This document shows, one piece after another, positions 48,519 through 48,940 of a stretch of DNA of 64,000 nucleotides. Source of the DNA: Escherichia coli (GTDB lineage: Bacteria > Pseudomonadota > Gammaproteobacteria > Enterobacterales > Enterobacteriaceae); NCBI RefSeq assembly GCF_003334355.1, contig NZ_QOWP01000010.1. One strand, given 5' to 3'. A program made the translations under genes and the position numbers. Within the stretch, counting starts at the first letter, position 1, and each line of letters starts with the position of its first letter. The notes beneath the pieces are model-generated. The model was given only the letters and a program-made list of their open reading frames with translations. It searched no databases and was not told the DNA's origin.

Positions 48519-48542
48519 GCCATTACTCCTGTTGTTCTGAAA

Positions 48543-48753
48543 GGTGCAACTTAACGTTATCGTGAAATATCCATGATGTTGCAACTTTGTGCAACCATGT
48601 TAAATGTGACATGCGTAGCAAGCTTAAAAATGAATGAAATGTTAATAAAAGAAATCGATATGACAGGGATTAAAAAAATAACTCAGACTTTTTCTCTGCG
48701 GCAGTTAACATTTTTGAAAGGTGCAACCGCAAAAAATGTGAGAGAGTGCAACC
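48543..48753. promoter_or_regulatory. put control region with PutA operator motifs (GTTGCA / GTGCAAC)
   Basis: Five copies of the core: ggtgcaac 48543-48550, gttgcaac 48578-48585, gtgcaacc 48589-48596, 48721-48728 and 48746-48753; divergent putA/putP promoters lie in this AT-rich 420-bp spacer. Confidence 0.6.
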
Positions 48754-48940
48754 TGATGAAAAATAGTGTCGCTGAGCACTAAAATTTAATGTAAATGGTG
48801 TGTTAAATCGATTGTGAATAACCAGCGCTTCCGGCAGGATACGGTCGCCCTGGTAAAACATAAACTCTGTTACCCCGTTCCGGTGGCAGATATAACGGCA
48901 AGTTTCGACATTGCCGATAATAATTTTTTGGAGACTTTAG

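Follow-up and report, generated by a model that had tools for sequence, protein, structure and literature searches.

The putA–putP control region of Escherichia coli: five probable PutA operators and a conserved hairpin in the putP leader

PutA as a repressor and the put locus

Ribbon-helix-helix (RHH) repressors use a β-sheet to read short sequence cores in the major groove, at promoter sites arrayed with a spacing of roughly one helical turn. A classic case of a 'trigger enzyme' is found at put, where PutA acts as the repressor of its own operon until relocation to the membrane switches it off. Contact by PutA would extend to ~9 bp through the bases that flank GTTGCA, and its operators were reportedly mapped in strain K-12 MG1655. 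Five operators, each with a GTTGCA core, were reportedly defined by Zhou et al. 2008, J Mol Biol 381:174; three are said to serve putA and two putP, and a 21-bp 'operator 2' DNA is said to have been co-crystallised with PutA52 (PDB 2RBF).

At low proline PutA represses both putA and putP, from operator sites in the DNA that separates them (PMC5879082; PMC5293562). Genomic SELEX identified a single PutA target genome-wide, the putA–putP spacer (PMC8249747), and in a published gel shift PutA shifted the 420-bp put control DNA with a Kd of ~45 nM. At high proline the protein leaves the put operators for the membrane (PMC5293562; PMC5879082), a redox switch in which PutA, once its flavin has been reduced by proline, binds to the membrane and no longer occupies the operators (PMC5293562). 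Control is exerted by relocation of the repressor to the membrane and not by a small-molecule co-repressor (PMC5293562). PutA shares with Arc, MetJ, CopG, and the type II antitoxins the use of promoter subsites spaced by helical turns, seen at put as a 10-bp register, but differs from all of them in that its RHH domain is fused to a 1320-residue membrane-associating enzyme.

We analyzed a 64,000-nucleotide stretch of DNA, referred to here as the window, which belongs to the E. coli chromosome. A 651-bp query taken from its put region (48400–49050) is 100% identical in many complete E. coli genomes, and 5418 of 5426 such genomes contain most of the query. Plasmid-labelled records account for seven of the 5425 matching places in the complete assemblies, and a few E. 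coli genomes hold two copies of the region.

Two divergent genes flank the put control region (Table 1). The 1320-residue PutA matches the NCBIfam equivalog NF008772 with 2658 bits over residues 1–1320, its full length, and PutA residues 1–52 have exactly the sequence of the RHH DNA-binding domain in the crystal structures PDB 2GPE and 2RBF; PutP matches NF011948 with 1142 bits. The putA start codon appears as CAT at 48516–48518 on the plus strand, and the putP ATG stands at 48941. The first-pass annotation had described the DNA between them as an AT-rich divergent spacer of about 420 bp, which is borne out by a length of 422 bp and a G+C content of 38.4% against 50.9% for the whole window. 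The genomic context that PutA operators call for is present, with divergent, full-length putA and putP and an N-terminal RHH domain in PutA.

The K-12 put control region, the source of operators 1–5, is the same locus, with all five cores, an identical repressor domain, and 421 of 422 spacer bases shared with the DNA described here. The sole difference from MG1655 is at 48538, which is T here and A in K-12; this polymorphism falls outside every core, 7 nt beyond the one nearest putA, and leaves the five hexamers unchanged. The 21-mer TTTGCGGTTGCACCTTTCAAA is present on the minus strand at 48713–48733, around the 48722 core, and is probably the 'operator 2' crystal DNA. The five hexamers would likewise correspond one to one with operators 1–5, judged from sequence identity with K-12 and from the operators reported by Zhou et al. 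2008. The division found here, with three sites on the putA side and two on the putP side, agrees with the arrangement reported there.

The earlier reading of the cores as operators (GTTGCA) of the PutA RHH domain is supported by the flanking genes, the RHH identity, the K-12 identity, and conservation. On this sequence evidence, the five hexamers are very probably the operators of PutA, the repressor of putA and putP, in the E. coli put control region. This is a known system at its known locus, not a new member or variant, and it has little weight as a discovery because the five GTTGCA operators are already published. Its use is that of a positive control: from raw sequence, the first-pass annotation arrived at a real, experimentally defined operator array and gave its count and coordinates correctly.

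Table 1. Features of the put control region and its flanks (window coordinates)
Feature	Position	Strand	Basis or remarks
putA (trifunctional repressor / proline dehydrogenase / P5C dehydrogenase)	44556–48518	-	ORF list; NF008772
put control region (putA–putP divergent spacer)	48519–48940	.	422 bp
GTTGCA core nearest putA, very probable PutA operator	48545–48550	-	+12 to +17 of the putA TSS; starts 32 nt upstream of the ATG
putA core promoter	48561–48594	-	TSS 48561; likely -10 GATATT 48571–48566; likely -35 TTGCAC 48594–48589; 17-nt spacer
Predicted three-repeat ArcA-P site ATGTTGCAACTTTGTGCAACCATGTTAAATG	48576–48606	+	under ChIP peak; -45 to -15 of the putA start; PMC3798270 Tables S1–S4, S6
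GTTGCA core at 48580–48585 in palindrome GTTGCAAC, very probable PutA operator	48578–48585	-	-24 to -19 of the putA TSS; proximal half of the 10-bp tandem pair
GTTGCA core, very probable PutA operator	48590–48595	-	-34 to -29 of the putA TSS; overlaps the -35 hexamer; distal half of the tandem pair
GTTGCA core, mid-spacer, very probable PutA operator	48722–48727	-	-82 to -77 of putP P1
GTTGCA core, very probable PutA operator	48747–48752	-	-57 to -52 of putP P1; ends 3 nt before the ymdG start codon
ymdG (b4737), translated 8-codon uORF MKNSVAEH	48756–48782	+	K-12 RefSeq annotation; VanOrsdel 2018; Weaver 2019
ArcA-P direct repeats at putP P1	48789–48821	+	DR1 and DR2 footprinted, -15 to +9; PMC3798270 text, Tables S4/S6
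HP1, hairpin in the putP 5' leader (9-bp stem, invariant 7-nt loop CCGUUCC)	48866–48890	+	RNAfold -11.5 kcal/mol; covariation
HP2, second leader hairpin (CGGCAA-N9-UUGCCG)	48896–48916	+	between HP1 and the putP ribosome-binding site
putP (sodium/proline symporter), divergent from putA	48941–50449	+	ORF list; NF011948

Placement and conservation of the GTTGCA cores

The spacer contains exactly five TGCAAC hexamers on the plus strand (48545, 48580, 48590, 48722, and 48747), which read GTTGCA on the putA strand; all five have the same orientation, on the coding strand of putA. Their counterparts in K-12 U00096.3 are 1078909, 1078944, 1078954, 1079086, and 1079111. A sixth GTTGCA match, at 48578–48583 on the plus strand, arises because GTTGCAAC (48578–48585) is a palindrome and can be read on either strand. 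Extended by one base, the cores comprise four copies of GTGCAAC and one of GTTGCAAC, which recovers exactly the count and the sequences claimed in the first-pass annotation. Its statement that two cores stand immediately at the putA start has to be corrected, since three lie near putA, separated from the ATG by 26, 61, and 71 nt, and none abuts the start codon. The two mid-spacer cores, 25 bp apart, are 203 and 228 nt from putA and 213 and 188 nt from putP. Read in the putA direction, the E. coli cores are (G/A)GTTGCA; the next base is C in four sites and A in one. Placement at the regulated promoters fits for putA and is looser for putP, whose two sites precede the P1 core.

In both clusters the distal operator lies within a longer module, GTGCAACC-N5-AAATGTGA, found on the plus strand at 48589–48609 and 48721–48741 with 16 of 21 positions identical. 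The TGTGA/TCAC part of this module is kept across genera in both places. The module may be a duplicated unit, or it may offer an extra contact for PutA or another protein.

To place the cores in a wider context, one genome per species was scanned for the back-translated RHH peptide TPHWLIKQAIF, which retrieved at least 120 loci from Enterobacterales, Pseudomonas, Aeromonas, Burkholderiales, and others; Salmonella, the classical genetic model of the put control region, lay outside the retrieved loci, as did Shigella and E. fergusonii. At least 320 nt of upstream sequence accompanied 110 of these ≥120 loci, which come from gamma- and beta-proteobacterial species with an RHH-type PutA. In these 110 species, among the matches listed, the density of GTTGCA is 13.2 per kb across the 320 nt that precede putA and 0.63 per kb over the first 3 kb of the gene itself, an enrichment of ~21-fold. 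At least two GTTGCA sites precede putA in all 110 of the 110 species, and a tandem pair in 10-bp register is found in 79 (both counts among the matches listed). The extended consensus across the same 110 listed species is (G/A)GTTGCACC, with G or A at -1 in 90%, C at +6 in 76%, and C at +7 in 77%.

The put regions of other Enterobacteriaceae (20 genera) share the E. coli plan: putA and putP are divergent, the spacer measures ~390–480 bp, the tandem pair GGTTGCACAAAGTTGCAAC is invariant and lies ~65–80 nt before the putA ATG, and a second pair, 25 bp apart, occupies the middle of the spacer. In the alignment of 20 spacers, among the matches listed, the block GGTTGCACAAAGTTGCAAC is unchanged in 20 of 20 enterobacterial genera and most of the surrounding spacer varies. 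Each mid-spacer core is kept in 17 of the 20 genera; at the 48747 site, the other three listed genera have GTTGTA.

The other Enterobacteriaceae compared differ from E. coli in lacking its fifth core, the one at +12 of the putA transcript. This putA-nearest core (48545) was found only in E. coli in the comparison of 20 spacers (among the matches listed); E. albertii has GCTATA in its place, and the core is absent from 18 other enterobacterial genera. Within the species its exact 28–30-nt context recurs in 5374 of 5426 E. coli genomes, and its flanks and those of the 48722 site agree in 15 of 16 nt. Judged from these alignments, conservation gives no support to the 48545 site, and only four of the five predicted operators are ancestral in Enterobacteriaceae. 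The +12 putA operator appears to be an E. coli-specific gain, which, if so, would tighten autorepression in E. coli.

Beyond the Enterobacterales, the RHH domain of Pseudomonas putida PutA (PDB 2JXG/2JXH/2JXI) is homologous to the E. coli domain at E = 2e-20. The GTTGCA core also recurs at Pseudomonas loci, which have a tandem pair in 10-bp register 88 and 78 nt before the ATG (-88/-78) and additional sites near -245 and -311; they differ in the spacing and number of the distal sites, one of which is reversed at about -268. In Silvimonas terrae (locus L003, 3356–3437), ~13 tandem (TGCAAC)n copies form a microsatellite 185–255 nt upstream of putA, besides which three ordinary GGTTGCACC-type sites lie nearer to putA.

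Promoters, ArcA-P sites, and competing explanations

A simple sigma-70 scan gave no excess over shuffles and missed the putA promoter, and promoter positions were therefore taken from published start sites. The putA start was derived from Tables S4/S6 of Park et al. 2013 (PMC3798270), in which U00096.2 1078163–1078193 corresponds to -45 to -15; the offset (window position = coordinate - 1029587) was confirmed against the printed sequences. The -10 and -35 hexamers of putA were picked by eye, and the likely -10 element, GATATT, is conserved in the 20-genus alignment (among the matches listed). The operator at +12/+17 falls inside the 43-nt putA leader. The start of putP P1 is near 48804, as placed by the ArcA-P footprint, which spans -15 to +9 on repeats one and two of 48789–48821.

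These positions suggest how the operators might act. Each PutA dimer forms one N-terminal RHH unit, whose two-stranded β-sheet would read, in the major groove, one GTTGCA core together with some adjacent base pairs. As long as proline is scarce, PutA is cytoplasmic and the operators are occupied: the tandem sites, in 10-bp register, would cover the putA -35 hexamer and the promoter spacer, and the third site would be filled just downstream of the putA start (+12/+17). Occupied putA sites would then exclude RNA polymerase from putA, presumably by occlusion at the individual sites. The mid-spacer pair, upstream of P1 and beside the ymdG uORF, would serve putP repression; the pair lies 52–82 nt upstream of P1, off the core promoter, and therefore simple occlusion of P1 does not explain putP repression. 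When proline is available, the PutA flavin is reduced, PutA moves to the membrane, the operators empty, and both genes are turned on.

On the putA strand, a published high-scoring Term-seq 3' end maps to 48490 (minus strand), which is 28 nt into the putA coding sequence and suggests accumulation of a short 5' putA mRNA fragment, ~72 nt from 48561.

A second regulator also has sites in the spacer. ArcA-P sites, as described by Park et al. 2013, are TGTTAA-like direct repeats ~11 bp apart over promoters, and two such sites are found here; published data provide, for this region, at least two TGTTAA-like repeats, a ChIP peak, and ArcA-dependent expression (PMC3798270). They differ from PutA operators in protein, signal, and consensus, and they do not account for the five cores. 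The block at 48789–48821 (ATGTAAATG / ATGTAAATGG..GTGTTAAATC..TTGTGAA) is the most conserved non-operator block of the spacer, and its conservation is attributed to the ArcA-P repeats footprinted there. Among the five cores, only the tandem pair overlaps an ArcA-P site.

This overlap raises the question of whether the putA-side hexamers are primarily direct repeats for ArcA-P, the anaerobic repressor of carbon-oxidation genes, and not PutA operators. An ArcA ChIP peak is present at putA and the gene is derepressed 30.8-fold in an anaerobic arcA deletion (Park et al. 2013, PMC3798270); the predicted three-repeat site ATGTTGCAACTTTGTGCAACCATGTTAAATG at 48576–48606 covers the tandem pair, and a neighbouring TGTTAAAT repeat is conserved together with it. 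Against this, the middle repeat of the putA site scores -0.1 bits in the Park et al. model, and the published ArcA footprint is at putP and not at putA (PMC3798270). ArcA repeats leave the three remaining GTTGCA cores without explanation, as they do the 21-fold enrichment of GTTGCA before RHH-type putA in Pseudomonas and Burkholderia lineages. We therefore regard a primary ArcA-P identity as highly improbable; most likely, PutA and ArcA-P share the DNA of the tandem pair, which makes ArcA-P an added layer and not a replacement. Since the tandem pair is also a predicted ArcA-P site, its perfect conservation is not creditable to PutA alone. As DNA common to PutA and ArcA-P, the invariant pair should be of interest to those who work on the put locus.

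Two further explanations would deny the hexamers to PutA altogether. That they form a functionless chance cluster in AT-rich intergenic DNA is vanishingly unlikely, even though GTTGCA is not over-represented across the whole window (50 matches against 56 expected) and the putA-nearest site is not kept by the other genera. Of the 50 matches in the window, six lie inside the 422-bp spacer, for which the rate outside predicts 0.29 and chance gives ~0.3–0.4; the Poisson probability of five or more in the spacer is 1.4e-5, five matches are reached in only 3 of 20,000 first-order Markov simulations, and comparable GTTGCA counts occur in no other 417-bp stretch of the window outside the cluster. All five sites, moreover, are on one strand, and four of the five are kept across genera while the neighbouring spacer diverges freely. 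The simulations, the 20-genus alignment, and the enrichment that recurs in 110 species (among the matches listed) refute the chance cluster. We give just as little credence to the proposal that the hexamers are sites of another regulator, such as CytR, or reflect coding constraint. The CytR repeat is given as the octamer GTTGCATT in the RegulonDB paper, but no core continues as GTTGCATT, the flanks being CC, AC, CA, CC, and CT; CytR needs CRP-like sites, and these are no commoner in the window than chance (192 matches to the CRP consensus with ≤3 mismatches against 220 expected), so that the four weak matches in the spacer are not evidence. A coding origin could appeal to a RefSeq CDS that spans four of the cores at 48573–48782 in many strains. 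This 69-residue PGAP ORF has no NCBIfam family match, however, its frame is broken by indels in other genera, and ribosome profiling shows translation of only its last eight codons, which are ymdG (Weaver 2019).

The ymdG upstream ORF and the putP leader

The start codon of the short ORF ymdG follows the 48747 operator by 3 nt, and the ORF precedes putP P1. Because ymdG is translated and yet transcripts from P1 would begin downstream of it, one or more additional plus-strand promoters must fire across or beside the mid-spacer operators. The ORF is poorly conserved, with a 7-codon version in E. albertii and none in register in Citrobacter. The PGAP 'hypothetical protein' of 69 residues, annotated in many strains on the plus strand in the ymdG frame, is almost certainly spurious.

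Downstream of P1, the putP leader contains a hairpin, HP1, whose pairing is supported by comparison across genomes. The sequence CGUUCCG is invariant in 27 Enterobacterales (among the matches listed). For the eight stem pairs tested, 82.9% of cells are paired, against 31–44% when the partner is slid by 1–3 columns; seven of the eight pairs have changed on both sides, in 56 cells, and none of 500 shuffles reaches the covariation score. Where PutP identity exceeds 78%, the putP leader has CGTTCCG in 28 of 32 loci (one of them from Pseudomonas); where it is ≤78%, the motif occurs in 0 of 38, mostly Pseudomonas (both among the matches listed), a further point in which Pseudomonas loci differ from E. 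coli.

Base-pair counts weakly favour the putP-sense strand (179 against 169 of 216 cells), and HP1 is assigned to the putP mRNA mainly because of a plus-strand Term-seq 3' end and its position downstream of P1. That published 3' end maps to 48896, 6 nt past the HP1 stem; the Term-seq study did not class it as Rho-dependent and listed it as a candidate uORF-linked end, 'ymdG-putP'. The second hairpin, HP2, is predicted in most enterobacterial genera with unrelated sequences and is missing in three short-leader genera.

A search of Rfam with 48300–49200 gave no matches at E ≤ 1. A conserved putP-leader hairpin with no Rfam match, and no description found in the literature examined, should interest those who study the put locus. 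We tentatively propose that this structured leader, confined to Enterobacterales, might be a cis-regulatory RNA that sets putP expression after initiation, whether through attenuation, through processing, or by offering a protein or small RNA a place to bind; we hold this reading to be possible, with the balance tilted somewhat against it.

Two smaller features of the leader are worth recording. Pairing of the HP1 loop with the putP Shine-Dalgarno sequence would give only 4 bp. The block GCTTCCGGCAGGATACGGTCGCC at 48826–48850 (plus strand) is nearly invariant across enterobacterial genera and repeats the UUCCGG of the HP1 loop downstream; as RNA, it could form a candidate short hairpin, CCG[GCAGGAUA]CGG, with GGA in the loop, reminiscent of CsrA sites.
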